From NCBI GenBank assembly GCA_016292035.1, contig JAEEZR010000010.1, forward strand, positions 29,535 to 93,534: a stretch of 64,000 bases of DNA. Direction: 5' to 3'. The notes under the pieces were generated by a model. It did no database searches. It was not told where the DNA came from and saw nothing but the letters and a program-made list of their open reading frames with translations. This DNA comes from Bacillales bacterium (GTDB lineage: Bacteria > Bacillota_I > Bacilli_A > RF39 > UBA660). This document shows positions 13,520 to 61,764 of this stretch, piece after piece. The first letter of the stretch is position 1; each line of letters begins with the position of its first letter. The translations under genes and the position numbers were made by a program.

Positions 13520-13562
13520 AAAATCACCTCTATTATTATAATATAAATAGATGTATCATTGA

Positions 13563-29858: not shown

Positions 29859-30797
29859 CTAGTTATATACAGTTTCTATTGGCCCACATGCTGCAATTCC
29901 ATCATTATATAAGTCACAATGGTCACTATTAGAAAACTGAAGTACCCTAGTTTTGGCTGAATAATTATATACCCAGAATCCTCCGTATATGTTTTCAGAA
30001 TCACCTATACGAAGTGATACGTAACTTGTGTCATAACTTGTTAGAGATTCATCTACTGTTATTCCTAAAGATGATTCAACATTTTGTATTAATTTGTTTA
30101 ATGTTGCGCTACCAGTTCTATCGGAAGATACCCATCCATTTGGTTTTTGACAAGCTAATTTTCCATTATAGTATACACACGCTTCATGCTCTACTGTTTC
30201 TTTATTAGTTCTTATAAGTACTAATCCATTTGTTAAAGATAAGTCACTAAGTCTTGTTTTTGCTGTTGATGGGTAAGATCCTTGTGCATATTCTGTGTTG
30301 TTTCCACCTTCAGTTTTTGTCCAGTATACATATGGACTATTTCCGCCATTTGTATTAGACTGTCCTAAGCAAGAGCATTCACCATTATCACATGAAAGTG
30401 TTCCATTTTTTACAAATTCTTCTTCATTTATGTTTGAAGAATATGATTCATTAACATAGCAGTAGTTTGAGTCTTCTACGGCTATAAAATCAACTTTTCC
30501 ATTTGGCCCAAAATCTACTATGTATTTAGCGTCTGTATCTGTTGTATCTAGTTTTGTTTCACTATTACATATATTTTCAATATTGTAGCAGTAATAATTT
30601 CTAGTATTATTTGATAATGAATCAGATTGTTTTTGACTTTCTGCTATTCTAACTATACTTTCAACTTTTACTTTGAATGCATCTTTTCTTCCTTTTTCAA
30701 ACATATTTAAAACGTTTGGCATTATAAGCAACATTAATATTGCTAGTATTGCTATTACTGCTAAAAGCTCTACTAATGTAAATCCTTTTTTATTCAT
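29859..30797 (-). CDS. Type IV pilin-like protein P3 (312 aa)
   Basis: MNKKG/FTLVELLAVIAILAILMLL. The ATG at 30797 avoids overlap with P4. It shares the head and the YVYW/GHEAC C-terminal module. Confidence 0.85.
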   Translation of the reverse strand: MNKKGFTLVELLAVIAILAILMLLIMPNVLNMFEKGRKDAFKVKVESIVRIAESQKQSDSLSNNTRNYYCYNIENICNSETKLDTTDTDAKYIVDFGPNGKVDFIAVEDSNYCYVNESYSSNINEEEFVKNGTLSCDNGECSCLGQSNTNGGNSPYVYWTKTEGGNNTEYAQGSYPSTAKTRLSDLSLTNGLVLIRTNKETVEHEACVYYNGKLACQKPNGWVSSDRTGSATLNKLIQNVESSLGITVDESLTSYDTSYVSLRIGDSENIYGGFWVYNYSAKTRVLQFSNSDHCDLYNDGIAACGPIETVYN

Positions 30798-30810
30798 ATA
30801 ATCATTCCTT

Positions 30811-31830
30811 TTAGTCTTCCAAATTATCATATACGTTTCCTGTGTTTATATAGGTATTACCATTAATAGTTACTATTTCACCTTTATCTATATAGTAATA
30901 CTTGCCTAAATTATATATGTATGTGACACCATTTACAACATTATTAAACACTAAATTGCCGTCCATTCTTTTTAAAAAATCCAAAGTTCCATTTGTCCTG
31001 TCAAAACAAAAAGGTCCACCAACAACAGAATTATCGACTAAAGATTGGGATTGTAAGCACATATATGGGTTAAAACCAGCGCTTATAAGTATTGGTTTTA
31101 ATTCCTCACCCGTTTCAATATTATCAAATGCATTTTTCTTAAAACATGTTGTTTTAGTAGTACTCTTAGCACATATTTCATGTCCTAGAACGTAGCCGTT
31201 ATTTAGTGTTGTTCTAAAGAACAAATTTCCTAGTGTTTCATAACTGGTTAATGCATTTGATGGATATGTTCTATCTGTAAATAATTCACCTTCTACTGTG
31301 TAATTAATGCATTTACCATTTTCATATGTGCATCTTCTTCTACCGTAAGTAATTGTATGATTCCAGTATACATATGTATTATTAGCTGGATCTAGATTTT
31401 CACATACACATACTCCATTTATGCATGTAAGAGGCTTTCCTTCTACTAAATCCTCTTCATTTATATTTGCATTATAATTATCGCTCACATAGCAATAGTT
31501 ACCATCTTCTATAGCTATTGATTTAACGTTATTTTTTCTATTAAATGTTACTTGGTATTTTGCCCCGTTTTCTGATACTGATAGTTGTTTACTATCTTCA
31601 CACTCATCTAATCCTTCACAGTATAAATTAATATTTTTTCCTTCTAATGTATCTGTTTGAATTTGTTTTTGTGCTGATTCTACAATATTGCCTACTTGTA
31701 CTTTGAAGGCATTTTTCTTTCCTTTAGAGAACATGCCAAGTACATTTGGCATTATAAGTAACATTAGTATTGCTAGTATTGCTATTACTGCTAGAAGTTC
31801 TACTAATGTGAATCCTTTTTTATTTTTCAT
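30811..31830 (-). CDS. Type IV pilin-like protein P4 (339 aa)
   Basis: MKNKKG/FTLVELLAVIAILAILMLL. It shares the head and the YVYW...GHEIC module, and has a distinct Asn/Gly/Tyr-rich C-terminal end. Confidence 0.85.
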   Translation of the reverse strand: MKNKKGFTLVELLAVIAILAILMLLIMPNVLGMFSKGKKNAFKVQVGNIVESAQKQIQTDTLEGKNINLYCEGLDECEDSKQLSVSENGAKYQVTFNRKNNVKSIAIEDGNYCYVSDNYNANINEEDLVEGKPLTCINGVCVCENLDPANNTYVYWNHTITYGRRRCTYENGKCINYTVEGELFTDRTYPSNALTSYETLGNLFFRTTLNNGYVLGHEICAKSTTKTTCFKKNAFDNIETGEELKPILISAGFNPYMCLQSQSLVDNSVVGGPFCFDRTNGTLDFLKRMDGNLVFNNVVNGVTYIYNLGKYYYIDKGEIVTINGNTYINTGNVYDNLED

Positions 31831-43524: not shown

Positions 43525-43553
43525 ATAATACACTATAATCTATTATATGTCAA
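43525..43553 (-). promoter_or_regulatory. Promoter of the infC-rpmI-rplT operon
   Basis: On the minus strand, TTGACA (overlapping the pbp TGA stop), a 17-nt spacer, then TATTAT. Confidence 0.55.
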
Positions 43554-45700: not shown

Positions 45701-45704
45701 ATTA

Positions 45705-46001
45705 TTACTCCTCTGTTGAAACTCTTCTTATATTACTATTATTATACCCCAAACCATAAGTTGTTGCAACAGCTTCAACATTGTCTAAAGATGCTAGTTC
45801 ATTAATTTTCATTTCTAAACTTGCATTAATATTTTCTTGTTTAGCAATTTTTTCTTTTATGCTTTCTACTTCAAAATTGGTTTTTGAAATAAAAGCCATA
45901 GATAAAGAACCACCGAAAATATTTCCGATTATTAAAACACCTATTAAGAAACGTAATGTTCTTTCACCTCTAAATAAGTTTTTCTTTCTGTTCTTTATCA
46001 T
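45705..46001 (-). CDS. ftsL: Cell division protein FtsL
   Basis: 98 aa bitopic protein with a TM helix and a coiled coil, located between rsmH and pbp. Confidence 0.75.
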   Translation of the reverse strand: MIKNRKKNLFRGERTLRFLIGVLIIGNIFGGSLSMAFISKTNFEVESIKEKIAKQENINASLEMKINELASLDNVEAVATTYGLGYNNSNIRRVSTEE

Positions 46002-46014
46002 ATTCTTTCTCCTT

Positions 46015-46917
46015 TTATATTTTTTCTATTATTCTTAGTTTTGCACTTCTACTTCTATTATTGTCTTCTAGTTCTTTATCAGTAGCCACTAATGGCTTTC
46101 TTGTTATATTTATAGCTTTTGCTTTCATATCATCTGGCACTACTGGTAGTTTCTTTGAAAGCGGATTATCGCTTGTTAATTCTTTAAAAACCTCTTTTAC
46201 TATTCTATCTTCCAAACTATGAAAAGAAATAATACATAGTCTTCCATGAGGAGCCAATAAATCAAATGCATCTTTAATGGAACTTTCTAAAATTCGAAGT
46301 TCATCATTAACTTCTATTCTTATTGCTTGAAATGTTTTCCTACAAGGATTTTCTTTTCTTCTATAACTTTCTGGGACATTATTCTTAATTATCTCAGCAA
46401 GTTCTAGTGTAGTGTTAATTGGTCTATTATTTACAATAGCTTTAGCAATTGATTTAGCATTTGCTTCTTCCCCATAGCAATATAGTAAATTGATTAAATC
46501 GTTAAGTGAATATTCATTTACTACTTCTTTGGCACTTAACTTTTGCCTTCTATCCATTCTCATGTCTAGAGGTGCGTCTTTATGAAAACTAAAACCCCTT
46601 GAAATTTCGTCAAGTTGTGGAGAGCTAACCCCTAGATCGAATAGTATTCCATCTACTGGTTCTTTAATATACTCTTTCATATTCTTAAAATTTGTATGAA
46701 AGATTTTAAAGTTATTACCTATCTTACTTAGTTTTTCACTGCTATAAGTAACTGCTTCCTCATCTTGATCAAAGGCGAATAGGAACCCCTCAGTTTCTAA
46801 TCTCTTCAAAATTTCCCCTGAATGGCCAGCATAGCCAAGTGTTGCATCGATATATTTGCCACTAGCCTTAATGTTTAATCCTTCAATTGATTCATCTAAT
46901 AATACACTCTTATGCAT
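46015..46917 (-). CDS. rsmH: 16S rRNA (cytosine1402-N4)-methyltransferase
   Basis: HKSVLLDESI..., DATLGYAGHS, FDLGVSSPQLD motifs. The ATG at 46917 has a GGAGGAG RBS, so the track's start at 46962 is less likely. Confidence 0.93.
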   Translation of the reverse strand: MHKSVLLDESIEGLNIKASGKYIDATLGYAGHSGEILKRLETEGFLFAFDQDEEAVTYSSEKLSKIGNNFKIFHTNFKNMKEYIKEPVDGILFDLGVSSPQLDEISRGFSFHKDAPLDMRMDRRQKLSAKEVVNEYSLNDLINLLYCYGEEANAKSIAKAIVNNRPINTTLELAEIIKNNVPESYRRKENPCRKTFQAIRIEVNDELRILESSIKDAFDLLAPHGRLCIISFHSLEDRIVKEVFKELTSDNPLSKKLPVVPDDMKAKAINITRKPLVATDKELEDNNRSRSAKLRIIEKI

Positions 46918-47347
46918 TTTCTCCTCCAGTAAATAAATTTTCTGCAATGTCTGCAAAGGCATCTAGATTACTCTCCATGAAAGTATTAAACGCATCCTCA
47001 GCCCATACTTCTATGTGTTCGTTTACGCCAATTATAACGCAGTTCTTTGTTAAATTGGCGTAACGAACGAGTGGTGAGGTAATATTAATTCGACCTTGCT
47101 TATCGAATTCGCTAGTGGATGCTCCGCCTAAGAAAAATCTATTGAAGTTTCTGACGTCGCCTTTAGTAAATGGAAGAGAAGCAAGTTTGTTAGTAATCTT
47201 CTCCCATTCAGATTTTGAATAAATGAATAAACATTTATCTAGACCACGAGTAACGATAATTTCGTCGCCCAAATCATATCTGAATTTAGAAGGAATAATT
47301 AATCTGCCTTTTTCATCAATACTGTGATGATATTCTCCCATTAGCAT
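46910..47347 (-). CDS. mraZ: Transcriptional regulator MraZ
   Basis: Two SpoVT/AbrB-like repeats with DEKGRLIIPSKFR and DKQGRINI motifs. First gene of the dcw cluster. Confidence 0.93.
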   Translation of the reverse strand: MLMGEYHHSIDEKGRLIIPSKFRYDLGDEIIVTRGLDKCLFIYSKSEWEKITNKLASLPFTKGDVRNFNRFFLGGASTSEFDKQGRINITSPLVRYANLTKNCVIIGVNEHIEVWAEDAFNTFMESNLDAFADIAENLFTGGENA

Positions 47348-47531: not shown

Positions 47532-50500
47532 TTAGCATGAACAACTAATGGATGAAGGCAATCCTGGCCCTTTAGGACAAGTACTTGCACTACTATTGCA
47601 GTAGTTCTTTAGACAATTTGTATCTGTTCCAACACATTTATAATAGTTAGATACACCTTTTGTTCCTCCGTTACAAGTCCAGCTTCCGCTTGCTGCTCCG
47701 CTTCCTGTATTAGTATATTTGACTGAGCATCCTTTAATTGTACCGGTTGTTCCATTACATTCATAAGAAGCTGTCCAATACCATTTGTTACCAGATCCTG
47801 AGTATGCTGTCCTTGTGACTGTACAGGAACTTTTTACTGCTTTTACTGTACAAGTAACATTATTAGTAACATTTCTAACTGTCAGTGTACTTCCTGATAG
47901 AGAACATCCTGTTCCTGTTACTGTTGATCCAGATAATTTATAATTATTAGATGCAGTAAGTGTAAAAGTAGCATTTGATGAGTGATTGATTAATGCACTA
48001 GATGGATTTGACGAACATCCTGTACATGAAACTGATACTGTGTATTGTTTAATTGGAATATTAACGTTGCAGCTTACATTACTTGTAACATTGCTTGCTG
48101 TTACTGTGCTTCCAGAGATTGTACAACCTCCAGTTACTGTAGCTTTTGATATATCATAGTTTTCGTTTGCTGTTATAGTAAATGATGCATTAGAGCCATA
48201 TTCTACTATTTGTGAATTACTTGAAGTAGTGCCGTTTGTTACTGATAAGTTAACGGTATACTTAAGTTTGTTCATTGAAGCTACACACGATCTATCTTTT
48301 CCGACATTATACGCTGTTATTTTTCCATTTTCGGCTTTGCATCCACTTGATGTTGTTGTTAGAGTGTTAATATCATATCCAGTTGATGCTGTAACTGTTG
48401 ATACAGTTGTTTCTCCTGGAGCCACTTCAACATAGCTAGGAGCTGCACTTCCGTGATCAACTATAAATCTTATTTCATATGCAAGTGGTGATAAAGTTAC
48501 GGTGCATGTTTGATTGTTATAAGCATTCTCTATTGATAAGGCATTTCCTTTTAGTTTACATCCTTCTCCACTTACTGTAGAATGTCTGATCATGTATCCT
48601 TCTTTAGGATTAATTGTTAATACTTTATCAGAATGTTTTTCTACTTCAAATGATACTTCTGATTCTTTACAGTTTTCACATATAACATTTACTTTGACAT
48701 TTTCATATGGAAGTATTCTATATGGATTATCTACTGTTCCGTCAGCATCATTAGTTAGAACATCATTATTTAATGATATTACCGGTCTTATAGCATAGTT
48801 TTTATCAACTGTCATTGCTTGGAATGAACCATATGTTCCGCTTCTTCCATTTACTTCATAAATATATCCTACTGCTTTTGCAGTTGAACTAGTAGTTGAT
48901 GCTATTTTAGCTGGTGACATTGTCCACCATCTTTGGTTACCCATGATTGATGAACCAATACTATTTAAATAATACCATGCTTTTGAGTTCCCTTTTCCAG
49001 AACTTCCTCCTGCAAATACTATCTCATCTATAGTCATTAGGGCTATTGGATATTTAAGTGATTCATTTCCGTTTTTAGTGCTATATCTATCTGATAATTC
49101 TTCACATGCATATGATGGCTCATCTATTTTATAAGCTCTCTTATAAGCATTAGTATATACAGTTGTTTTTATTTTACCATTGTCTTTTATTGTATATGTT
49201 CCATTATATATTGATGAATCACCACAGTAGATAGCATTCCTATTTATATAGTTAGAATATCTTACTAGATTTCTACTATAATAGTTATCTATCATAAGTT
49301 TTACATCTGAATCATATATATTAGTTCTTAACTCATCTAGATCACTATAAGAACTTCCATACATATATCTAATAGCACTTGGATATATTTTATCGTTAAA
49401 GTTACTAGATGCTATTGAAGCATTTGTAGTTGAAGGATTTGGTCCTACATAAAGAAGTCTTACACCATTTCCTTCATTATTAGAGTTGGTTCTAATTATT
49501 CTCCAATATAGTTCTTTTCCTTCATTATTTTTACCGAATATTACCCAGTTATTTGTTACATTTCCTCTATAAAAATATACTCTTGATTTATCTTGTGTAT
49601 CAGTTGTGTAGTATATTTCTCCTGTGTTATTATTTTTGTCTACTTTATTATAGTCTATGCTTGCTGCTGATATGCTTTTATTATCATCTAATATCTTTTC
49701 AGATAATACATGACTTTTTGTTTTTGCAATTACTGTGCATGTAGTATCTTCCACTACATTTTTTACTGTAAGTTCATTATTTTCATTTAAAATGCAGTTT
49801 GTTTCATTAGATGAAGTAACGTCTGCATTTCTTAAAGTAAATCCACTAGTTGCTGTTATTGCAAATGTAGCATTGCTTCCTTCATATACACTTTTTTGTC
49901 CGAAGTTACTAGTGCAGTTTGAACATAAAACTGTTACTGTATGTTTTGGCTTTGGTTCTGGTGGTATTTTAGGTAGTGATATATTGTAAGATACATTTTT
50001 AGTTACGTGTACTTTCAGTATATCTTCTTCAAGTAAACATCCTCCACCATTATAGTAAGCTCCTTGTGTTGTGTAACCTTCTTCTGGAATTAAAGTATAA
50101 GTTAAATCTTGACCATATGCTTGATCGCTTTCTGTTATTGTGCTTGGATTTGCTCCTGTTATATTTACATTTACTGAAAAGAATTCTTGATTTAAAGTGA
50201 CTTTGCATCTACCATTTTTAGTTATATATGCACTTACAAGATTACCACTTACTGTGCATCCTTCATATCCTTCAGTAGTGGCACCTTCTAGTATATATCC
50301 TTCTTTTGGTTCTATTATTCTATTAACTTCTTGACCATATTCTACTTCAAATAGTGATTCAAATCCCGCCTGTGCTTCATCAGAAGTGAAATAAAAATAA
50401 TATTTCTCTTTATCCAGTTTTATATTACATACTGTATTTTTTTCTATATTAGTTGCTAATACTTTTAAGTTGTTTTCTTCATCTATATATAATTTACAGT

Positions 50501-51335
50501 GATTGTTTTCTTCTTCTAGTGGTTCATCTTCTTCTAACTCTTCTTCTTCGTCATCTACAAGTAGTTTAAGAGCGTTGATAGTATACTTTCTTGTATTAAG
50601 AGCTAGAGGCTTGCTCTTATTTCTTGATTCTAATTCTTCTTCACTTATAACTTCAGCAGAATCTATATCATATCCGTCTTCTGGAGTTAATGTAAATGTT
50701 TCTGAACCACCTACATGTACATATTTAGCTTCAGCATCAGGTGTTGCGCCTTCAACATTTAGTGTTACTATTCTTTTATTTTCTTCATATTCTGTTTTAT
50801 CTAGGAAACATGTTACATGAGTTTTAATTATTTTTCCTTGATCTATGTTTTGTTCAGTTCCTGTTTCTTTGAATATTATATTATATTTTACTTCATGGAT
50901 TTGTCCTTTAGAGATTATATTTTTTTCAGGCTCTAGTGTTCCTTTTGAAAGGATTATTTCTTCGCCTGGGGTACTAGGAACTGGTGTTTCTGATAAAAGA
51001 TTTCCATCTGTTCCATCAATTGTTTGAACATATACATTATTAGTGTAACTGTTTTCTTCCATTGTTAGAGTGCATGTATAGTCTACTGCTACATCAGAGT
51101 CACTTATAAAATAAACTCTAGTTGATCCTTCGCCTTTCCATCCAGGGAAAACATTTTCAGATGCTTCAGGAGAAGATACTACATATTCTACTTTTCCTAG
51201 TCTAGCTGTCTGTACAGTGCTGCTTGATGATTCTCCTCCATAGTTAAAAACAAAGTAAGCTAACGCTGTACTTGTTACTAACATAATTAGCGATAAAAAG
51301 ATAATTACTGATAAAACCATTGATTTCTTCTTCAT
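47532..51335 (-). CDS. Giant secreted or anchored repeat protein (1267 aa). Layout: N-terminal hydrophobic signal (not a prepilin), unique domain, 4 InlB-B-repeat-like modules, a 335-aa globular insert, 4 more modules, and a Cys-rich cap ending SCSC.
   Basis: The ORF is intact. The N-terminus is MKKKSMVLSVIIFLSLIMLVTSTALAYFVF. The modules are homologous to those of pilins P1 and P5. There is no LPXTG motif. Confidence 0.85.
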   Translation of the reverse strand: MKKKSMVLSVIIFLSLIMLVTSTALAYFVFNYGGESSSSTVQTARLGKVEYVVSSPEASENVFPGWKGEGSTRVYFISDSDVAVDYTCTLTMEENSYTNNVYVQTIDGTDGNLLSETPVPSTPGEEIILSKGTLEPEKNIISKGQIHEVKYNIIFKETGTEQNIDQGKIIKTHVTCFLDKTEYEENKRIVTLNVEGATPDAEAKYVHVGGSETFTLTPEDGYDIDSAEVISEEELESRNKSKPLALNTRKYTINALKLLVDDEEEELEEDEPLEEENNHCKLYIDEENNLKVLATNIEKNTVCNIKLDKEKYYFYFTSDEAQAGFESLFEVEYGQEVNRIIEPKEGYILEGATTEGYEGCTVSGNLVSAYITKNGRCKVTLNQEFFSVNVNITGANPSTITESDQAYGQDLTYTLIPEEGYTTQGAYYNGGGCLLEEDILKVHVTKNVSYNISLPKIPPEPKPKHTVTVLCSNCTSNFGQKSVYEGSNATFAITATSGFTLRNADVTSSNETNCILNENNELTVKNVVEDTTCTVIAKTKSHVLSEKILDDNKSISAASIDYNKVDKNNNTGEIYYTTDTQDKSRVYFYRGNVTNNWVIFGKNNEGKELYWRIIRTNSNNEGNGVRLLYVGPNPSTTNASIASSNFNDKIYPSAIRYMYGSSYSDLDELRTNIYDSDVKLMIDNYYSRNLVRYSNYINRNAIYCGDSSIYNGTYTIKDNGKIKTTVYTNAYKRAYKIDEPSYACEELSDRYSTKNGNESLKYPIALMTIDEIVFAGGSSGKGNSKAWYYLNSIGSSIMGNQRWWTMSPAKIASTTSSTAKAVGYIYEVNGRSGTYGSFQAMTVDKNYAIRPVISLNNDVLTNDADGTVDNPYRILPYENVKVNVICENCKESEVSFEVEKHSDKVLTINPKEGYMIRHSTVSGEGCKLKGNALSIENAYNNQTCTVTLSPLAYEIRFIVDHGSAAPSYVEVAPGETTVSTVTASTGYDINTLTTTSSGCKAENGKITAYNVGKDRSCVASMNKLKYTVNLSVTNGTTSSNSQIVEYGSNASFTITANENYDISKATVTGGCTISGSTVTASNVTSNVSCNVNIPIKQYTVSVSCTGCSSNPSSALINHSSNATFTLTASNNYKLSGSTVTGTGCSLSGSTLTVRNVTNNVTCTVKAVKSSCTVTRTAYSGSGNKWYWTASYECNGTTGTIKGCSVKYTNTGSGAASGSWTCNGGTKGVSNYYKCVGTDTNCLKNYCNSSASTCPKGPGLPSSISCSC
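47832..48704 (-). repeat. C-terminal block of four tandem modules of about 72 aa in the 1267-aa protein
   Basis: aa 878-1168, for example YTVSVSCTGCSSNPSSALINHSSNATFTLTASNNYKLSGSTVTGTGCSLSGSTLTVRNVTNNVTCTV. Confidence 0.85.
49722..50774 (-). repeat. N-terminal block of four more divergent modules in the 1267-aa protein (the first is interrupted by an acidic insertion)
   Basis: aa 188-538. Acidic insert DDEEEELEEDEPLEEE at aa ~260-276. The fourth module has the full CxNC...C...C pattern. Confidence 0.7.
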
Positions 51336-51362
51336 TTATCTCATCTCTATTCTATATAGATT

Positions 51363-51391
51363 ATTATATACCGTTTAAAGATTTTTATCAA
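51363..51391 (-). promoter_or_regulatory. Promoter of the 1267-aa gene
   Basis: On the minus strand, TTGATA, a 17-nt spacer, then TATAAT. Confidence 0.55.
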
Positions 51392-51404
51392 GTTTTTAGT
51401 CATA

Positions 51405-51430
51405 ATAAAAAGTACCTTTTAAGGTACTTT
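51405..51430 (-). terminator. Intrinsic terminator after pilin gene P5
   Basis: Stem aaagtacc/ggtacttt with a 6-nt loop. It overlaps the TAA stop and is followed by TTTTTATT on the minus strand. Confidence 0.65.
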
Positions 51431-53030
51431 AATTACAACTACAATTATATCCTGAAGAACTTACATTTATACCAGCAACACTTGTGCTTGATAAACTTGT
51501 ATTACAATATGAACGTATATTTCTTCTAGTTGTGCTTGTACACATTCTGTTAGGATTTGAGCTTCCGTAACTTCCACCATTACACTGAGTACTTCCATAG
51601 AAGCAGTTTACAATGCTACCAGTTTTTCCGCCGGTGCATGTGAATGACCCATAAAATCCTGATGTTGGTTTAGTTGTTGTACAATTAGAACTTGAAGAAC
51701 AATAAACTGTGCAGCTAGATGATTTAGCAGTTACAGCACATGTTTTATTAGATGTTACATTAGACGCTGTTAAAGTGCTTCCTGAAAGAGTACATCCTCC
51801 TGTTACTGTTGCTCCTTCTAAAGAATAACCACTTGATGCTGTCAGTGTAAATGTAGCATTTGTATTATAATCAACTGTTTGACTAGAAGTATTTAAAGTA
51901 CATCCTGTACATGTAGCTGAAACTGTAAATTGTTGTTTAGGCGCTGTTACGGCGCATGTAGTAGCAGCTGTTACATTGTTTAAACTTACTGTACTTCCTG
52001 AAAGTGTGCATCCTCCTGTTACTGTTGCACCTGTTAGGGTATATCCTGTATTTGCAGCGATAGTAAATGATGTATTAGTAAATGCCTCAACATTTTTTTC
52101 TTCACTTGCTGGTGTACAGTTAGTACATGTTAGCTTAATTTTATATGATTGTACTCCTAGAGATACTCTACATGTAGTATCTGCTAATACATTTGTTACT
52201 GATACTTTACCATTTTCTAGTGTGCATCCATCTGACACTGTGGCATTGTTTAGATTATATCCAGTATTAGCTGATATATTAAAGTATACATTTGATCCAG
52301 CCATAACGGTTCTTGTACTTGTAGCTGGTGTACAATTAGTACATACTAAATCTACTTTATAGCTTGCTACTGGAAGTGTTATAGTGCATGCTTTATTTGA
52401 AGTAACATTTGATGCTTTTAGAATATTATCTTCTAGTGTGCATTCTCCTTCAACAGTTGCATCTTCTAGTGTATATCCAACATTAGGAGTGATTACAAAT
52501 AGTGCATCCGTTCCTTTATCTACTAGTGCATAAGGCATATCACTTTTACCATTGTTAACTGTAACTGATACTTTCTTTTTACCTTCTATTACAACACAGC
52601 TGCAGCTCTCTCCTGTACATTCTACTGCACCATTTTTAATGTCACTCGTATTTATATCGAATTCTTTAGTTGTGTCTACATCTTTTATATAGCATAAGCT
52701 TCCATCAGATACTGTTAGATGTGATACTTTACCACGTTCATTTAATTCTATTTTATATTTCTTATCGGTTTTTAAAAGATCTAATGATGTACATCCTAGG
52801 CTTGATAGAGATTCATCACAGTATACTCTTCCCGTCGCTCCAGTTAGTCCATCAGCCATGTATTTCTTTTCAGCTTCTTTTTTTATTGATTCAATTTCAA
52901 TTTTAAATGCATCTTTTTTTGCTGCTCCAAACATGTTTACTACCTTAGGATAAATAAGTAGCATAAGTACTGCTACTACTCCTAGTACGGCTAAAATTTC
53001 GACCAAAGTAAAACCTTTTTTATTTTTCAT
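51429..53030 (-). CDS. Modular type IV pilin-like protein P5 (533 aa): prepilin leader, head, 4 InlB-B-repeat-like modules, and a 96-aa Cys-rich cap ending NCSCN.
   Basis: MKNKKG/FTLVEILAVLGVVAVLMLL. The head aligns with P1 (ESIKKEAEKKY..YCDES..LGC). The repeats are at aa 154-437. Confidence 0.88.
   Translation of the reverse strand: MKNKKGFTLVEILAVLGVVAVLMLLIYPKVVNMFGAAKKDAFKIEIESIKKEAEKKYMADGLTGATGRVYCDESLSSLGCTSLDLLKTDKKYKIELNERGKVSHLTVSDGSLCYIKDVDTTKEFDINTSDIKNGAVECTGESCSCVVIEGKKKVSVTVNNGKSDMPYALVDKGTDALFVITPNVGYTLEDATVEGECTLEDNILKASNVTSNKACTITLPVASYKVDLVCTNCTPATSTRTVMAGSNVYFNISANTGYNLNNATVSDGCTLENGKVSVTNVLADTTCRVSLGVQSYKIKLTCTNCTPASEEKNVEAFTNTSFTIAANTGYTLTGATVTGGCTLSGSTVSLNNVTAATTCAVTAPKQQFTVSATCTGCTLNTSSQTVDYNTNATFTLTASSGYSLEGATVTGGCTLSGSTLTASNVTSNKTCAVTAKSSSCTVYCSSSSNCTTTKPTSGFYGSFTCTGGKTGSIVNCFYGSTQCNGGSYGSSNPNRMCTSTTRRNIRSYCNTSLSSTSVAGINVSSSGYNCSCN
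51720..52571 (-). repeat. Four tandem coding repeats of about 71 aa inside P5
   Basis: Same consensus as the P1 repeats. A 41-nt stretch (52009-52049) matches P1 (9603-9643) at 39 of 41 positions. Confidence 0.85.
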
Positions 53031-53057
53031 CTACATCTACCTACCTACTATAACATT

Positions 53058-53086
53058 ATTATATATAATTATATATTATTTTTCAA
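53058..53086 (-). promoter_or_regulatory. Promoter of pilin gene P5
   Basis: On the minus strand, TTGAAA, a 17-nt spacer, then TATAAT. Confidence 0.55.
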
Positions 53087-53088
53087 CA

Positions 53089-53114
53089 TTAAAAAGAAGC
53101 ACAATGCGCTTCTT
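53089..53114 (-). terminator. Intrinsic terminator after the prepilin peptidase gene
   Basis: Stem aagaagc(g)c/g(a)gcttctt with a short loop, followed by TTTTT on the minus strand. Confidence 0.55.
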
Positions 53115-53860
53115 TAAAATACATAACCCATACTGGATAATATATATATTATTATGCATGATAATAATAGGAACGGTCCGAATGGAATTAGATTTTCATT
53201 ATATTTTTCATCGAGTAAGAAGTAAGCTATTAAAGCTAGAACGCTAGCTACAAATAATGAAAGAAGTCCATTAAATGTTCCAAGAGCAAGTCCTATAGGA
53301 AGCATTAATTTTACATCTCCTCCTCCAAGGCTTTCTCTTTTAAATACTTTATCTCCTACTATTTTTACTAATAACATAATTACAAATAATACTACCATTC
53401 CAACTATTTTTAATTTGTAGTCATTAAATGAACTAAATGATATATATGTTATTAGTATTAATAGAGTTGATCCAAATACTACTCTATCTGATACGTAATA
53501 ATATTTAAAGTCACTTACTGCAGTTACTGAACATGCACTTATTAATATTAGTGGCACTATTATATCCGCAGTTAATCCATAATACAAATAACTACACATA
53601 AATGTTATACCAGTAAATAATTCTACTATTAAGCTACTTATATCTATATGCGCTTTACAATATGAGCATTTACCTTTTAGGCATATATAAGATATTACTG
53701 GAATGTTCATATACCATTTAAGTGGTTTTAAGCAGTTATCGCATCTACTTCCTGGTTTTATTATACTTATATTATTTGGTATTCTATATCCTATGCAAGC
53801 ATAGAAACTTCCAAGAAGTAAACCAAGCACTAAAAATGCTCCCCCATAAAATACTGTCAT
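53114..53860 (-). CDS. Prepilin peptidase (A24 family, PilD/ComC type)
   Basis: N-terminal Cys pairs CDNC...CSYC, polytopic membrane protein, catalytic Asp contexts AVSDFKYY and GGGDVKLM. Confidence 0.88.
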   Translation of the reverse strand: MTVFYGGAFLVLGLLLGSFYACIGYRIPNNISIIKPGSRCDNCLKPLKWYMNIPVISYICLKGKCSYCKAHIDISSLIVELFTGITFMCSYLYYGLTADIIVPLILISACSVTAVSDFKYYYVSDRVVFGSTLLILITYISFSSFNDYKLKIVGMVVLFVIMLLVKIVGDKVFKRESLGGGDVKLMLPIGLALGTFNGLLSLFVASVLALIAYFLLDEKYNENLIPFGPFLLLSCIIIYILSSMGYVF

Positions 53861-53870
53861 TATATTCCTC

Positions 53871-55748
53871 CTATTTAAGTATTTCTGAACTTACGTTGTA
53901 CATTGGAACTAATACTGATATCATTATACCACCTACTACTACTGCTAGGAATACTAGTAGTATAGGTTCTACCATTGTTTTTAGAGTATTTGCTAAAGAA
54001 CGTTGTTCTCTTTGATAGTACTCACTTATTTTTTCAAGCATGCTAGCAAGTTGTCCAGTTTGTTCACCTGTTGATATCATATAATATGCAAGTTCTGGTA
54101 TAGCCCAGCTTTCCTTAAATGATAATGACATTTTTTCACCTCTTAATAGGTTTGAAATTGTATCATACATTATCATTTTATAGAATTCATTATTAGTTAT
54201 TTTACTTAAGATATCAATTGTATCTGTAAGTAATACATTGTTTTTATTAAGTACTGCGAATGTTTTCGCAAATAAGTTCATTTCATTATAGATAACTATG
54301 TTACCTACTACTGGTATATGCATGTATGCATATTGAACTACTGTTCTAAATGCTTTTACTTTCTTATATAGTATTGAGAATACCAATATAATAGCTAATA
54401 TAGCTACAAATAATATACCAACATTATTTCTTAAGAAGTCTGATAGTTTTAATAAGAATAATGTTATACCTGTCATTTCTGCATTCATTGAATCATATAC
54501 TTTTTTGAATTGAGGTACTATGTATACAACCATGAATGTTATAACAGTTACTGCAAATATAAGTACTATAGATGGATAAGTTAATGCACTTATCATTTGT
54601 TTTCTTGTAACTTCTTTTTCTTGATAATAATTTGACATATCATCTAGAGTTCCTTCTAGATCACCTATTAATTCAGCTGCTTTTATCATGTTAATTAAAA
54701 GAGCTGGGAACACTTTGTTTTGTTTTTCTAATGCAGATGAGAAGTTTTCACCTACAGATAATTCATATATTAATGAAGAATATACCTTTTTATATTTTCT
54801 TCTATTATCTTGTTTAGCTAATATTTTAATAGCGTCTATTAATGGAATACCAGCTTTCAAATATGTGGATAATTGTGTTAACCAGAATACTAAGTCTTTA
54901 TTCTTCATTTGTTCATTCATGTGTGATTTCTCACCATGTATGAAATTTATCCACCAGTTAGTAGTTATTTCATATACTTCATATCCTTCATCAATTAAGA
55001 ATGAGTGTACATCTAGTCTAGATAAAGATGGGAAGTATCCTGTTATTAATTTGCCTTCTTTATTTCTTGCTAAATATCTATATACTTGTTTCTTTTCAGT
55101 TCTTTCAGCATCTTTACCAAATTTATCAATAAATAATACTTCAAGTTCTCTTTCTTTTTTATTTTTATAGTATTTAACTAATGATATATTATTCCATTTG
55201 TTTACAAAGTAATTAGATATAGACTTAGGTGCATTTTTAGTTGCATATGTTGTCTTTTCTCTAATCATTTTAATTCTTTTAGCAGATTTATCTACAAATC
55301 CACTAAGTGAACTATATATAAATATAGGGAAAGAATAGAATATTACTTTTAATACTTTAAATGAACCTCTTCCGATTGCCTTTAGTAGTAAATATAGCTC
55401 AGTTACTATTGGTTTAAGAGAATATTTGTATACAGCTTTGCCTACTATTCCTACATATTTAGCAATAAACTTAGATGCATACATTATTGCTACAAAAATA
55501 TAACTAAATACAGTAAAAATATTAGTGACTAAAAAGTCAAATGCTTTAAATAAACCTACTGATGTGTATGATAGTGTTTTTATTATTTCGCCAAATAATC
55601 CTACTACTATTTTTTTTATTAATAAAAATATACTTTTAAAAAAGTCTACAAAGAATTTAACTATAGGATTCATATTCCTATTAGTAGAGACGGAACTATT
55701 CTTTTTTTTCTTGGTTTGCTTTGGTTTTGCTTTTTTATATGTTTTCAC
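53871..55748 (-). CDS. Type IV filament platform protein (GspF/PilC/ComGB family) with a 220-aa N-terminal extension
   Basis: GTG start with GGAGG 8 nt upstream. The canonical N-domain begins at YRYLARNKEGKLITG (aa ~223). There are two T2SSF repeats (LSTYLKAGIPLIDAIKILAKQ and FAVLNKNNVLLTDTIDILSKI) and 3 core TM helices. Confidence 0.88.
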   Translation of the reverse strand: MKTYKKAKPKQTKKKKNSSVSTNRNMNPIVKFFVDFFKSIFLLIKKIVVGLFGEIIKTLSYTSVGLFKAFDFLVTNIFTVFSYIFVAIMYASKFIAKYVGIVGKAVYKYSLKPIVTELYLLLKAIGRGSFKVLKVIFYSFPIFIYSSLSGFVDKSAKRIKMIREKTTYATKNAPKSISNYFVNKWNNISLVKYYKNKKERELEVLFIDKFGKDAERTEKKQVYRYLARNKEGKLITGYFPSLSRLDVHSFLIDEGYEVYEITTNWWINFIHGEKSHMNEQMKNKDLVFWLTQLSTYLKAGIPLIDAIKILAKQDNRRKYKKVYSSLIYELSVGENFSSALEKQNKVFPALLINMIKAAELIGDLEGTLDDMSNYYQEKEVTRKQMISALTYPSIVLIFAVTVITFMVVYIVPQFKKVYDSMNAEMTGITLFLLKLSDFLRNNVGILFVAILAIILVFSILYKKVKAFRTVVQYAYMHIPVVGNIVIYNEMNLFAKTFAVLNKNNVLLTDTIDILSKITNNEFYKMIMYDTISNLLRGEKMSLSFKESWAIPELAYYMISTGEQTGQLASMLEKISEYYQREQRSLANTLKTMVEPILLVFLAVVVGGIMISVLVPMYNVSSEILK

Positions 55749-55823
55749 AAATAGTACCTCCTCTATTCTTTTTTACTATTTCTATAATATCATATTTCTT
55801 TTTATATTAAAAGAATTTTTTTA

Positions 55824-55856
55824 AAAAGAAAAGAACTTTACTTTCGTAAAGTTCTT
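55824..55856 (-). terminator. Intrinsic terminator after the 601-aa gene
   Basis: 11-bp stem aagaactttac/gtaaagttctt with a 4-nt loop, followed by a T-rich run on the minus strand. Confidence 0.7.
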
Positions 55857-55864
55857 ATTTTATA

Positions 55865-57670
55865 TTATTCTTCACTTTTGATAAAGTCTACGCTTGTTGT
55901 GTCAATTACGTTTCCTTGTTCATCTTTTAAGATTAAATCTACTTCGTAATATCCATCTTTGTCTGCATCAACTACTACTTCATCTAATTGTGAGAAACTA
56001 TTAGCATCTTTAAGTTCAACTGGAGCACCATTAACATCATCAATTACTTCACCGTTGTATTTAATAGTTACTGTTGAGCCTTCTGCTTTTTCTTTAACTA
56101 CTGCAGTTATTGTTCCATTAAATGTAACATTTTCTCCTGCACCATAAGTATTTTCATATGTTTCAACAAATCTATCTGTTGATTCTTGTTCTTCAAGATT
56201 AATGTACTCATAATATGATGATATGTCTTCAATTGTTGGTGAATCTACTGAACAGTAATCATATCCGCATCTTTCGTAGTATACAGTGTATTCATCTAAT
56301 TCAGTATCATCTGTTAATACGTAGTTGTTAGAATATTGATCAATAACTATTTCTGTTGGATATGTAGGTGTTTCTTCATATACTTCCATAGCATAATCTG
56401 TTGTTTTAACTGTTTTTCCTTCTTCATCTTTTAGAGTAAATGTAAGTAAGTAATTTCCTTCTTTACTTGCAGTCATGTCATTAGAATATTCTATATTACT
56501 TGAAGAAACATTTACTGTATATAGTAAACCTTGTGCAGTTTCTGAGAAAGTGTCTACTCCATTTTCATTATTCCATGAAAGTGTTCCAGCTCCTTCATAA
56601 GTTACATACATTTTATAATCTTTGCTTTCATCCAATTCACTACTTGAAACTGATACTGAGAATGGTGCTTCTACAGCTTTTATACGTTCAGATGTTCCAT
56701 CACTTAATTCAATGAATGTATACTTACTGTTATCTTTGTCTAGATATATAAGTTGTGTTCCTGAAGCGTATGGATTATCAACTTTTGCAGTATCTTCTCC
56801 TAAATCAATGTTATTGTTAGATGGATCAACAATTATTGAAGGGCTTCCTTCTATTTCGTTATTATTTATAACACTTGCATTGTTTGTAGTTGATACTTCA
56901 CTTGAGCTTCCACTGATTCTTGCTCTTGAATCACTATATTCATTTTGATTTGTAATGTTTATGTTATCATTAACAACAACTTTAGAATCGTTGATAGTTA
57001 ATGCATAATAAGAAGCATCTACATCCATTTTTCCAATAGTAACATCAGTTGAATCTACTATTTGTATTGCCACTCTATCTTCATAGCTTCTTCTTTCAGT
57101 TATATTAACATTTAAATTTGTTAGTGATACTTTTTGATTAGTATTAATTTTAATACCATATGATTTAATTAGTTGTTTTGAGAAGTTTATTGTTTTTCCT
57201 TTTCCATCAATTGTTACTTCTCTATCAATTAAAATTGGTTTTGATAAACCTGTTAAGTCATTTTGTAATTCTAGTGTAGTAGCGGCATTTTCAGTTTGTG
57301 CTAGAGTCAATACTAATTCTTCATAAGAAGATATTTCGTCTTTTGTTATTACATTACCATTATCATCTCTAGTTACACCAAATAATGTCTCACTTACTAC
57401 AGTTCCATCTGCTTTTACCCATTTACCAGTTTCAGTATTATATTTAACTATTGATGCTGGGTTAATTGATGGTGGTAATAATTCAGCAGTAATCCTATTT
57501 ACATATATTCTATCTGCAGCTATATAAATGTTGTCGATTTCTGCTCTATTATTTACTGTTGTAGTAGCCATTGTTTTAGCTTCACTTTGTGTTATAATAG
57601 TTGCTTTTGCATTAGTAAGTGGCACTAATAATAGAATTGTAAATAGTATCCCATATATTATTTTTTTCAT
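55865..57670 (-). CDS. Secreted protein (601 aa), possibly a beta-helix region plus acidic Ig-like C-terminal domains
   Basis: Sec signal MKKIIYGILFTILLLVPLTNAKA. VTIDGKGKTINF and short repeated V/I-x-V-x-N rungs suggest a parallel beta-helix. No anchor motif. The fold call is tentative. Confidence 0.7.
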   Translation of the reverse strand: MKKIIYGILFTILLLVPLTNAKATIITQSEAKTMATTTVNNRAEIDNIYIAADRIYVNRITAELLPPSINPASIVKYNTETGKWVKADGTVVSETLFGVTRDDNGNVITKDEISSYEELVLTLAQTENAATTLELQNDLTGLSKPILIDREVTIDGKGKTINFSKQLIKSYGIKINTNQKVSLTNLNVNITERRSYEDRVAIQIVDSTDVTIGKMDVDASYYALTINDSKVVVNDNINITNQNEYSDSRARISGSSSEVSTTNNASVINNNEIEGSPSIIVDPSNNNIDLGEDTAKVDNPYASGTQLIYLDKDNSKYTFIELSDGTSERIKAVEAPFSVSVSSSELDESKDYKMYVTYEGAGTLSWNNENGVDTFSETAQGLLYTVNVSSSNIEYSNDMTASKEGNYLLTFTLKDEEGKTVKTTDYAMEVYEETPTYPTEIVIDQYSNNYVLTDDTELDEYTVYYERCGYDYCSVDSPTIEDISSYYEYINLEEQESTDRFVETYENTYGAGENVTFNGTITAVVKEKAEGSTVTIKYNGEVIDDVNGAPVELKDANSFSQLDEVVVDADKDGYYEVDLILKDEQGNVIDTTSVDFIKSEE

Positions 57671-57689
57671 TTTTTCTCCTTCCTTTATT

Positions 57690-58577
57690 TTATCCTATAA
57701 TTGCTTTTTTAACATTATAAGTTGTATTGTTTAGTTTTATTTTTGCTACTGAGTTAATTTGATCTTTATCAACTATTATAGCTTTTATACTTTCATCATA
57801 TCTTCCAAGATATTTGTCAGCGGCATTATATACTGCATATACTTCTTTAGCTTGTGCTTCAGTTAATTCTGTGTCATTCTTTATAAGTATTATCTTGTAA
57901 GAAATATCAAGTCCATCTACAGCCTCATATCTGTATTTATAATCATCTAGTACAGTTATTGTTACTGTAGCCATTTTACCAGAGTCGCTACTTTTAACAG
58001 TTATAACAGCTTTACCTGGCTTAACAGCAGTTACTGTACCTTTAGCATCAACTTTTGCAACTGCTTCATTATCTGATGAGTAAGTTAATCCAGTGTTTAG
58101 TACGCCACTAGGATATACGCTTGCACCTATTTCATAAGTACTGCCTATTTCTAGATTAACACTTGTTGCTTTAACATTTACTTTAGTTACAGTTAGTTTA
58201 TAGCAAGAGCAACTTTCTGTATTTAAAGCATATCCTTTATCACAAGTTAGTGTGCAAACACTTGCTACCGGTTCAGTGGGTTTTTCTTCTTTACTAGGTT
58301 CTTTTTTATTCCATTTTGCAACTAAAACCATATCTTCAGTAACTTCTAGATCAAAGTCATATTTTTCTCCATCTAGTTCCCATCTTGCAAAAGAATATCC
58401 TTCTTTAGTTGGATCTTCAGGCTTAGTAACTTTTCCTCCTTTTTCTACATTTTGGCTTTGTACTTTAGTACCACCATTACTATCAAATTCTACTAAGTAT
58501 TCTTTCTTAGAACAACTACATGCAGTTAAGACAGTAAGTGCAAATACTAAAAGCACTGCTATTTTTAGTTTTTTCAT
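57690..58577 (-). CDS. Lipoprotein with a Listeria-Bacteroides (Flg_new) repeat, a CxC Cys-cluster and a Big_2-like Ig domain
   Basis: Lipobox LTAC. YLVEFDSNGGTKV...PTKEGYSFARWELDGEKYDF...MVLVAKW is the classic Flg_new repeat. CTLTCDKGYALNTESCSC cluster. ...AVAKVDAKGTVTAVKPGKAVITVKS is Big_2-like. Confidence 0.8.
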   Translation of the reverse strand: MKKLKIAVLLVFALTVLTACSCSKKEYLVEFDSNGGTKVQSQNVEKGGKVTKPEDPTKEGYSFARWELDGEKYDFDLEVTEDMVLVAKWNKKEPSKEEKPTEPVASVCTLTCDKGYALNTESCSCYKLTVTKVNVKATSVNLEIGSTYEIGASVYPSGVLNTGLTYSSDNEAVAKVDAKGTVTAVKPGKAVITVKSSDSGKMATVTITVLDDYKYRYEAVDGLDISYKIILIKNDTELTEAQAKEVYAVYNAADKYLGRYDESIKAIIVDKDQINSVAKIKLNNTTYNVKKAIIG

Positions 58578-58605
58578 TTTGTCTCCTTTCTAATACTTTT
58601 AGGTA

Positions 58606-58663
58606 AGCAAAAAGGGATTATGAAAACACAATAACGGTTAAATTAATGTATTATCATAATCCC
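58606..58663 (-). promoter_or_regulatory. Terminator-like hairpin inside the 5' UTR of the lipoprotein operon (candidate attenuator or riboswitch expression platform)
   Basis: On the minus strand, GGGATTATGA (58654-58663) pairs perfectly with TCATAATCCC (58614-58623) across a 30-nt loop and is followed by TTTTTGC. It lies about 40 nt after the predicted TSS and about 30 nt before the GGAGA RBS. Confidence 0.5.
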
Positions 58664-58701
58664 TCCCCCTAAGTAACCCAATAGTATTACTTACATTTTT
58701 G

Positions 58702-58730
58702 ATTATAATTAAGTTAGAAAAAAATGTCAA
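58702..58730 (-). promoter_or_regulatory. Consensus sigma-A promoter of the lipoprotein/601-aa operon
   Basis: On the minus strand, perfect TTGACA, a 17-nt spacer, then perfect TATAAT. Confidence 0.7.
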
Positions 58731-58756: not shown

Positions 58757-59458
58757 TCAGGCATTTTGTATCTTATATATTACATAATTATGGTTTCTTT
58801 TTACTTTGTTTATATTGTCTATATAATCAGTTTTTCTAAAGTTAAAGTCTATTAGTTTTCTTTCCAATAATAGTTTGTTTAATTTACTATCTATTCCTTT
58901 AAATTCTTCATATATATTTATCAGTATAAATATAAATAAATATATAGCTAGTATCTTACCTATTATAAAAAATATTAGTGGGGTTAATACTAAGCTTATT
59001 AATAAAGTTACTTTAATGCTTTGCTTATATGGAAGAATATAGTCTAATAAATTATTTAATAGTCTTCCTCCATCTAGTGGAATTATTGGTAGTAGATTAA
59101 ACTTAAGTAATAATATATTTATCATGTATATTTTTTCATATGTTATATTTCTAATTATTCCTAGTGTATTTAGCTTATACATTAATAATATAAATAATAT
59201 CTGCACTAGGGGGCCACTTATAATCATTAGTATTTCTTTATATATTTTAGTATTTAAACTACTTTCTAATTTAGTTATTCCTCCGAATAAATATATTTCT
59301 ATTTCTTTTACTTTCATTTTTAGAAGACTACCTACTATACAGTGACCTAATTCATGAATAATAATTGATATAATTAATACAAATGTATAATCAAAGTATC
59401 CCGATAAAAATGATAGGAGTAATGCTATATATGTTATTATATTTATTTTAATTTTCAA
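58757..59458 (-). CDS. M50 family site-2 metalloprotease (SpoIVFB-like, no CBS domain)
   Basis: HELGH in TM helix, LLPIIPLDGGRLL motif. Overlapping gene pair with an M23-like protein, as in spoIVFA-spoIVFB. Confidence 0.75.
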   Translation of the reverse strand: MKIKINIITYIALLLSFLSGYFDYTFVLIISIIIHELGHCIVGSLLKMKVKEIEIYLFGGITKLESSLNTKIYKEILMIISGPLVQILFILLMYKLNTLGIIRNITYEKIYMINILLLKFNLLPIIPLDGGRLLNNLLDYILPYKQSIKVTLLISLVLTPLIFFIIGKILAIYLFIFILINIYEEFKGIDSKLNKLLLERKLIDFNFRKTDYIDNINKVKRNHNYVIYKIQNA

Positions 59459-60026
59459 TATATGGCCTATAGTCTAATACTTCATCATCTTTATAAAAAG
59501 ATAAGTATAAATAATCATTATTAGTTTGACCTAGCACTCTATCTTTTTCTATGTAGTCATATACTTTTAGATCATGTACATCTATATTTGAATAGATTAC
59601 ATTTATTCCATTACTTTGCTCGATTATTATACTATCCATATCATCTTTTTTTCCTATAAAACATATAAGGCCACTATTAAGGGCTTTTATAGTATAACCT
59701 TTATTAGTTTTTAATAATACTCCATTTAGGTAGTCTTTCTTTTCTTCATATATTAAGTTCTTTTCTTTACTTACTGTTTGCAGTGCATTATCTTTTATAT
59801 CTTTTATTTTTAATATATAGTCATTATATATTTTATTAACTTTAGAGAAGTTTATATTTTCTTTATATACTATATCTTTTATTCTTTCTTTAAATTTGGT
59901 ATTTGTTTTAGATATTATTAATATAGTTAATACTATTATTGCTACTACTAGAGATTTTTTTAATAATCTGTTTATATAATCTACTATGTTTAGTTTATTT
60001 CTTTTTAGATAGTCTTCTACTTTCAT
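59448..60026 (-). CDS. Membrane-anchored degenerate M23/LytM-domain protein (SpoIVFA-like)
   Basis: N-terminal TM helix. The C-terminal G.ICFIGKKDDMDSIIIEQSNGINVIYSNID...V..YDYIEKDRVLG follows the LytM fold pattern without the catalytic His residues. Confidence 0.6.
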   Translation of the reverse strand: MKVEDYLKRNKLNIVDYINRLLKKSLVVAIIVLTILIISKTNTKFKERIKDIVYKENINFSKVNKIYNDYILKIKDIKDNALQTVSKEKNLIYEEKKDYLNGVLLKTNKGYTIKALNSGLICFIGKKDDMDSIIIEQSNGINVIYSNIDVHDLKVYDYIEKDRVLGQTNNDYLYLSFYKDDEVLDYRPYIEN

Positions 60027-60088
60027 TTATTTCACCCATAAGTATTTTATGTCTTGAACTTTTTATGTATTACATTTAAACTATAAGT

Positions 60089-60442
60089 ATGAAGAAGATT
60101 AATGAAAGTTTAATAATTGAAAAGAAAAGTAAATTTATAGGAATACTTTATGAAGTAAATAGTGAGGAAGAAATTAAAGATATTCTTAATTATTTAAAGA
60201 ATGAACATAAGAAAGCTAGACATATTTGCTATGCCTATAAGATTGGTCCCTTAGCTAAAAAAAGTGATGATAAAGAACCTAGTGGTACTGCTGGTAATCC
60301 TATTTATAATACTATTATGATGAATAACTTAGATAATGTTTTAATAGTTGTTATTCGTTATTTTGGCGGTACTCTTTTAGGAACTGGACTTTTAACAAGA
60401 AGTTATTCTAAAGCTGCTTCTTCTTTAATTAGTAACAAATAA
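60089..60442 (+). CDS. IMPACT/YigZ family protein, N-terminal (UPF0029) domain only
   Basis: SKFIG...ARHICYAYKIG...DDKEPSGTAGNPI motifs. At 117 aa it lacks the usual C-terminal DUF1949 domain. Confidence 0.75.
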   Translation: MKKINESLIIEKKSKFIGILYEVNSEEEIKDILNYLKNEHKKARHICYAYKIGPLAKKSDDKEPSGTAGNPIYNTIMMNNLDNVLIVVIRYFGGTLLGTGLLTRSYSKAASSLISNK

Positions 60443-60524
60443 TATTTTTAACATATAATATAATAGATAAAGATATAGTTAACTAAGGTTTAGTTAATAA
60501 TCCATGGATATATCTTTATCTTTT

Positions 60525-61743: not shown

Positions 61744-61764
61744 CTTTTGTAAAAAATTAGTCGA

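Follow-up and report, generated by a model that had tools for sequence, protein, structure and literature searches.

A probable platform-and-peptidase locus of a dispersed T4aP-like pilus system in a Bacillales bacterium

Does a locus that encodes the platform and the prepilin peptidase of a type IV filament, with no ATPase gene beside them, represent a reduced machine, or one part of a machine whose genes are dispersed? The question is raised by a stretch of 64 kb (~28% G+C, nearly every gene on the minus strand) from Bacillales bacterium assembly GCA_016292035.1 (contig JAEEZR010000010.1, positions 29,535 to 93,534), hereafter the window. Its genes include those of a PilC-like platform and a prepilin peptidase, of five large modular pilins and of a conserved accessory protein that is not a pilin. 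A first-pass annotation of this DNA had offered two alternatives: either the ATPase is encoded far away and acts in trans, or the locus is a reduced and possibly undescribed, ATPase-less variant. All type IV filaments characterised so far depend on this ATPase, a rule that its true lack here would break; the evidence described below points otherwise. We conclude, with a probability of roughly 85% (proposed mechanism included), that the locus is the platform-and-peptidase part of a dispersed pilus system resembling type IVa pili (T4aP), the ATPase of which is encoded elsewhere. A distant ATPase locus is what the relatives have, the reduced variant finds no support in this lineage, and the absence of the ATPase from the window is best explained by dispersed gene order.

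The absence itself was confirmed. A six-frame scan of the window for Walker A motifs returned DnaI and LepA alone, and tblastn with the ATPase of the clade gave no match. PilM/N/O-like and secretin-like genes had also been reported missing, and neither PilM/N/O, PilT nor a secretin was found among the 50 window open reading frames (ORFs) scanned with Pfam; the window likewise holds no GspC, GspL or GspM family member. It also lacks a prepilin gene of the 120-122-aa class that accompanies the ATPase in relatives, as well as tdk, ppdK, tig and greA, the housekeeping neighbours of the ATPase there. The Walker A scan would have caught tdk. The window extends 53.9 kb on one side of the platform gene and 8.2 kb on the other, which is the side that bears the ATPase in Clostridium sp. 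CAG:628.

A scan of one genome per species gave 475 stretches encoding a relative of the platform, the best 80 of which were kept for comparison and set the scope of the locus counts that follow. All 80 come from uncultured gut genomes named 'Bacilli', 'Tenericutes' or 'Clostridium sp. CAG' (including CAG:628, CAG:524 and CAG:1000). In a separate database search, the platform had a 100% match on an NCBI contig of 100,398 nt and, beyond it, a family of ~600-aa homologues at 54-78% identity. The comparison of gene neighbourhoods, which the first-pass annotation had recommended for PilC-like homologues, placed the peptidase gene directly 3′ of the platform gene in every untruncated locus. In seven of the 80 loci, a PilB/GspE-type ATPase with the motifs GATGTGKS (Walker A), GEIRD and TGH and a tetracysteine motif is encoded just past the peptidase on the opposite strand, so that even as a direct neighbour it forms a transcription unit of its own. 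All seven ATPase-adjacent loci fell into one sub-clade of a tree of platform cores, the sister of the larger sub-clade that contains the window; in the latter, no locus has an ATPase within 10 kb of the platform.

The ATPases of the clade were detected by their GEIRD motif and by tblastn. A homologue search with the sister-clade ATPases returned only matches of at least 70% identity, all of them that clade's own. When the ATPase was used to scan metagenomes, 80 low-GC contigs were obtained; 62 of them show neither platform nor peptidase, and 14 of these 62 are flanked by the full 10 kb on either side. The ATPase of the window's clade has 440-460 aa and scores 415 bits with Pfam T2SSE, 484 with GspE (equivalog cut-off 630), 464 with PilB and 266 with ComGA (cut-off 300); judged by these matches, it is a bona fide T2SSE protein. 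It is strongly conserved, the 120 best database clusters all being at least 84% identical, on contigs of up to 1.29 Mb. Its gene forms a module with tdk, a xerC-like gene and a gene for a 121-122-aa prepilin, and this module recurs in independent assemblies, in another species (including on a 702-kb contig) and in L140, the ATPase contig closest to the window (enolase 81%, SecG 85% and L20 77% aa identity). The prepilin of this module, of 120-122 aa, is likely the major pilin subunit. Its gene is always divergent from the unlinked ATPase gene and follows the xerC-like gene and tdk (L160 9500-9868, L140 9386-9748, L170 1015-1380).

The distance between ATPase and platform can be read in CAG:628, whose platform is 63% identical to that of the window and belongs to the same sub-clade. 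There, contig L160 and the platform locus L021 overlap with 97.5% identity. Independent assemblies were reached from the two sides, through a 99.6%-identical ATPase (P0280, also P0346) and through a platform of the CAG:628 type (P0361), and the ATPase-side and platform-side assemblies share the series ppdK, dnaB-like, dnaI, mvaI-like and mscL. Over 6.17 kb, the platform-side assemblies L183 and L185 are 99.0-99.2% identical in nucleotide sequence to the ATPase-side assemblies L168 and L169. The composite map runs from the ATPase through the 122-aa prepilin, xerC-like gene, tdk, ppdK, dnaB-like gene and dnaI, and then past mscL to the platform and the peptidase. By this overlap, the ATPase gene of CAG:628 starts at a distance of 13,829 nt from the start of the platform gene and is encoded on the other strand. 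The first-pass annotation would have given way to a cognate ATPase just outside the window in the same operon context; by analogy with these relatives an ATPase gene may indeed lie not far off, but as a separate unit in another operon.

T4aP and Com systems are usually encoded at multiple loci (PMC6668835), so an unlinked ATPase is unremarkable. In the mechanism that we propose, the A24 peptidase would cleave the G/FTL(V/I)E leaders (the slash marks the cleavage site), a hexameric ATPase of the PilB/GspE type, with its gene elsewhere in the genome, would drive the platform, and the platform would then polymerise the pilins. The large Cys-rich modular pilins would act as minor, adhesive subunits, probably at the tip or displayed on the surface. 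A large uncultured group of gut Bacilli with reduced genomes (of the CAG:628, CAG:524 and CAG:1000 type) conserves a dispersed type IV pilus, and the large pilins and the accessory protein are candidate adhesins for attachment to hosts or particles in organisms not yet grown.

Several points weigh against this interpretation. An ATPase acting in trans is demonstrated for the relatives, and for this genome it is predicted by analogy with them. The pili of the clade are known from genes alone, none having been observed in any member, and the roles of the small pilin as major subunit and of the large pilins as minor, adhesive ones are putative. Moreover, the ATPase module of L140 lies between secG and dnaB/dnaI, and both breakpoints, on the secG side and on the dnaB/dnaI side, are inside the window with the module at neither, indicating that the module has moved. 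This last point is shared with the view that the genome truly lacks a T2SSE ATPase and retains a decaying remnant, or an ATPase-independent system for filament assembly or processing; 64 kb without an ATPase, and a module missing from both positions predicted by L140 synteny, are what that view would lead one to expect. However, the ATPase is present in all sampled relatives of both sub-clades wherever the relevant DNA was reachable, and the platform, peptidase and five prepilins of the window are intact, with good promoters and ribosome-binding sites. In addition, the module and its housekeeping companions tdk, ppdK, tig and greA are all missing from the window, so that the whole segment is elsewhere, which argues for relocation rather than loss. 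We consider an ATPase-less genome very improbable. The specific version in which the T2SSE ATPase was lost and an intact platform, peptidase and pilins were kept is more improbable still; if true, it would imply processing, display or assembly of pilins without a dedicated ATPase.

The preferred reading, a dispersed T4aP-like system, also has to accommodate the properties of the proteins in the window, which contains the generic components of a type IV filament: class III prepilins, an A24 peptidase and a platform of the GspF/PilC/TadB type. Positions 1-400 of the 401 of the GspF model align to platform residues 223-622, a complete GspF/PilC core. With NCBIfam models the platform scores 256 bits for GspF (cut-off 424), 244 and 210 for PilC (NF052607 and NF052606, cut-off 700 for each) and 153 for ComGB (cut-off 240), in all cases under the equivalog cut-off. 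Among Protein Data Bank (PDB) profiles it matched Myxococcus xanthus PilC (3jc8, E 7e-57). The AlphaFold model of the platform has a predicted local distance difference test score (pLDDT) of 73.8, and its cytoplasmic domain resembles those of EpsF, OutF and PilC (template modelling (TM) score 0.83-0.89); the cytoplasmic N-domain is almost invariant within the window's clade. The peptidase gene follows 10 nt 3′ of the platform gene, in one transcription unit.

Ahead of the core, the platform has an N-terminal extension of ~200 aa, with predicted lysine-studded, moderately hydrophobic helices at residues ~28-185 (pLDDT ~70-86). Its architecture is conserved across the clade; it gave no sequence match, and no fold match in a structure search with the platform model. 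Sister-clade platforms encoded beside the ATPase are extended as well (L083, 686 aa), indicating that the extension is not an ATPase substitute.

With monoderm T4aP, those of Clostridia and the pil system of Streptococcus sanguinis, the system shares a PilC/GspF platform, an A24 peptidase, canonical G/F..E prepilins and, in the relatives, a PilB/GspE-type ATPase with a tetracysteine motif. The multi-locus layout is common to both (PMC6668835), and PilB and PilC of S. sanguinis are likewise large modular minor pilins (PMC8179133, PMC9934059). The system differs in the platform extension, in the unannotated four-Cys repeats of its pilin modules, and in the ATPase of the clade, which has no N-terminal domain, its match to the GspE model beginning at position ~106. 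It differs also in encoding the ATPase apart from the platform; adjacency of pilB and pilC is the common arrangement in T4aP. A further difference is that PilM/N/O and PilT are missing both from the window and from the regions annotated with Pfam around the platform and ATPase genes of relatives. It is conceivable, though rather unlikely, that the machine of the clade is a minimal one of three proteins, namely PilD, a short PilB and a PilC in which the ~200-aa extension takes the place of PilM/N/O, and that it displays giant Cys-rich modular pilins along with an accessory protein that is conserved but is not itself a pilin. What stays mildly unusual is the extended PilC, the lack of visible PilM/N/O, an accessory domain without annotation, and several modular pilins that are Cys-rich and very large.

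The same parts list would also fit a Com-type pilus, serving DNA uptake and not adhesion, with the small ATPase-side pilin as a ComGC analogue. The Com pilus of Bacillota (ComGA, ComGB, ComGC-GG and ComC) has the same minimal list of ATPase, platform, peptidase and pilins without PilM/N/O or PilT, and an absence of PilM/N/O is normal for Com-type pili. Both systems encode the peptidase apart from the ATPase, both have a small pilin of ~100-120 aa, and the best or second-best weak match of the ~120-aa prepilins is the ComGC model. However, the platform scores far better with GspF and PilC than with ComGB, and the clade ATPase with GspE and PilB than with ComGA; besides these, the window pilins reach only 29-37 bits with ComGC (cut-off 75), so that all three Com cut-offs are missed. 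The comGA-GG operon layout is absent, the platform being paired with the peptidase and not with the ATPase, and comEA, comEC and comF were not seen in the window. The pilins, in turn, are very large, and five modular proteins with repeats and Cys-rich modules suggest ligand binding. By sequence, the machine is nearer to T4aP/T2SS-type components than to ComGA and ComGB, with every NCBIfam equivalog cut-off missed; its component list looks Com-like. We regard a Com-type pilus as unlikely.

A pseudopilus resembling a type II secretion system (T2SS; GspE/F/G), exporting the 601-aa and 1267-aa proteins of the locus as cargo, would account for GspF and GspE being the best NCBIfam models of the platform and the ATPase and for secreted proteins on both sides of the platform gene. 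Both scores are nevertheless far under the equivalog cut-offs, the host is monoderm, and no genes for a secretin (GspD) or for GspC, L or M were found in the window. Nor is there any sign of a separate cargo: in no relative does a homologue of the 601-aa protein or of its lipoprotein neighbour lie near the platform, and the other supposed cargo proteins are prepilins themselves or share modules with pilins. A secretion system is therefore very unlikely, and the 'cargo' label of the first-pass annotation is to be abandoned, the large proteins being modular type IV pilins and one non-pilin paralogue.

We return to the dispersed pilus system and its subunits. Five window ORFs have the class III signal G/FTL(V/I)E and match N_methyl/TIGR02532. 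Four of them lie outside the locus, as had been stated, with an N_methyl match in each. The longest ORF of the 677-aa prepilin spans 8597-10708, and the prepilin start is its residue 27; the ORF at 29859-30830 has 323 aa if counted from the first ATG. A pilin module of ~145 aa is common to all five. In the 533-aa prepilin it is followed by three repeats of ~72 aa with four Cys each and then by a C-terminal end rich in Cys; the repeats are shared with the 677-aa prepilin and the 1267-aa protein, and the Cys-rich end with the 1267-aa protein. The 533-aa and 677-aa prepilins are paralogues (42% identity over the full length of the former), as are the three of ~310-340 aa, the 312-aa one being 44% identical to the 323-aa and 339-aa ones. 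The pilin sizes reported earlier stand, but they are not exceptional, since modular pilins are a known and widespread class of >1,200 proteins of up to 860 residues (PMC8179133).

The repeat protein of 1267 aa does not belong to the prepilins. It starts with a signal or anchor ending ..TALAYF and continues with a central domain of ~330 aa, pilin-type repeats and the Cys-rich end; over ~390 aa, its C-terminus is 42% identical to the 533-aa prepilin. It has no match in Pfam, NCBIfam or PDB sequences. The central domain (48696-49700, aa ~544-874), likewise without a hit in these three, contains the motifs YWRIIR..., WWT.SP and IRPVISL; a single-sequence AlphaFold model of it has a pLDDT of 31. 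It recurs in proteins of ~510 aa adjoining the peptidase in some relatives (L017, L018, L072 and L080) and in others adjoining the ATPase (L140, L137 and L133). We conclude that the central-domain family is a conserved accessory of the pilus system. The N-termini of the ~510-aa proteins (L018 12698-14236, L140 11645-13168, L017 12675-14261) end ..SLAYFTA.., which we take to resemble SipW/TasA-type signals, a likeness that no NCBIfam or Pfam model supports.

The locus occupies four consecutive units on the minus strand, from 58730 to 47532, whose promoter and terminator boundaries had been proposed in the first-pass annotation and were examined by scans for promoters and hairpins; ORF calling found its six ORFs (58577-47532) at the coordinates given there, and Pfam and NCBIfam served to identify their products. 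Unit i encodes a lipoprotein and the 601-aa secreted protein, unit ii the platform and the peptidase, unit iii the 533-aa prepilin and unit iv the 1267-aa protein (Table 1). The three promoters described earlier (58730, 53086 and 51391) are the three best-scoring promoter matches in the region, each immediately 5′ of a start codon; overall, promoter-like sites show no excess over chance (64 found, 66 expected). For unit ii, the extended −10 element TGATATTAT is present, together with a GAGGAGG ribosome-binding site ahead of the GTG start. Terminators are enriched, with eight found and 2.9 expected. A fourth terminator, 3′ of the 1267-aa gene, is an AT-rich hairpin with a T-run near 47525-47495 that was identified by eye, having escaped the hairpin scan because of the GC rule of that scan.

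Table 1 Features of the locus and additional prepilin genes in the window (slash, predicted cleavage site of the prepilin)
Feature	Coordinates	Strand	Evidence
Promoter-like site, unit i	58702..58730	-	TTGACA-17-TATAAT, 12/12 match
Lipoprotein, 295 aa, unit i	57690..58577	-	Flg_new + Big_2, lipobox
Secreted protein, 601 aa, unit i	55865..57670	-	weak Pectate_lyase_5 (adhesive-domain) match
Terminator-like hairpin 3′ of unit i	55831..55856	-	11-pair stem + T-run
Platform, PilC/GspF family, 625 aa, GTG start	53871..55748	-	Pfam T2SSF 165.7 bits, two stretches
A24 prepilin peptidase, 248 aa	53114..53860	-	A24_N_bact 99.1 bits, Peptidase_A24 55.4 bits
Terminator-like hairpin 3′ of peptidase gene	53093..53115	-	10-pair stem
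Promoter-like site, 533-aa prepilin gene	53058..53086	-	11/12 match
Modular prepilin, 533 aa	51429..53030	-	N_methyl, MKNKKG/FTLVE
Terminator-like hairpin 3′ of 533-aa prepilin gene	51409..51430	-	9-pair stem
Promoter-like site, 1267-aa gene	51363..51391	-	11/12 match
Repeat protein, 1267 aa, surface or secreted	47532..51335	-	no family match
Prepilin, 339 aa, in tandem with the 29859..30797 prepilin	30811..31830	-	N_methyl
Prepilin, 312 aa from MNKKG/FTLVE	29859..30797	-	N_methyl at residues 12-36
Prepilin, 312 aa	12581..13519	-	N_methyl
Modular prepilin, 677 aa	8597..10630	-	N_methyl at residues 28-53; MKRKNRG/FTLIE start

Unit i is probably a neighbour outside the machine. The 601-aa protein has no homologue in any of 164 related loci, and of the lipoprotein the Flg_new repeat alone matches, in two unrelated loci. 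We rejected unit i as a machine part, no relative having homologues of its products near the pilus genes.

The housekeeping neighbours of the platform-peptidase pair vary between species. In many relatives the pair is placed after dnaG-sigA-trmK and a small divergent ORF. At the dnaG-sigA-trmK site of the window (4102-4389) the pair is missing, and it lies instead between a spoIVFB-like gene and mraZ; its position in the window is therefore derived. The earlier description of the locus as long-resident consequently holds for the pair in the clade and not for its present position. The neighbouring 'dcw cluster' is, similarly, less than its name: only mraZ-rsmH-ftsL-like-pbp2B is present, followed by infC. 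In this dcw remnant (43550-47347, minus strand), infC-rpmI-rplT follow directly in place of mur and fts genes.

The small ORF of many relatives, 90-116 aa and without a family match, lies divergently just 5′ of the platform gene (L003 9608-9883, L013 8071-8364, L065 9499-9801, L071 9520-9807, L078 5918-6190, L079 9201-9545, L083 755-1105). The copy in the window (4102-4389, plus strand) is 40% identical to that of L013 and stands beside trmK, 50 kb from the platform gene. The small ORF may belong, as a conserved partner, with the pilus genes or with trmK.

The sister-clade locus L079 has a Tad-like set directly 3′ of the platform-peptidase pair (12254-16831), with two TadE-like ORFs, a ParA/CpaE-like ATPase, a CpaF-like ATPase and two TadB/C-like ORFs, and a PilB-type ATPase 1 kb beyond. 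The Tad-like assignment comes from sequence inspection and one weak tblastn match. In the literature, the genomics papers on RF39/RFN20 mention neither pili nor competence, and the TANB77 pilin paper (PMC11680825) concerns a Tad pilus of Clostridia and is unrelated.

The window also carries spoIIP, gpr, a gene for a spoIVFB-like M50 peptidase, PBP2B and FemAB, which marks the host as a walled member of the Bacilli, probably one that forms spores. Immediately upstream of the locus come the sporulation genes (58757-62421: spoIVFB-like M50 peptidase, M23 peptidase, spoIIP and gpr), and the CAG:628 species has the same M23-M50 pair ~9 kb beyond its ATPase. Ribosomal protein L20 of the window (42115-42633, minus strand) has a C-terminal Rho_N-like domain (Pfam Rho_N, E 2.6e-10, residues 138-171).

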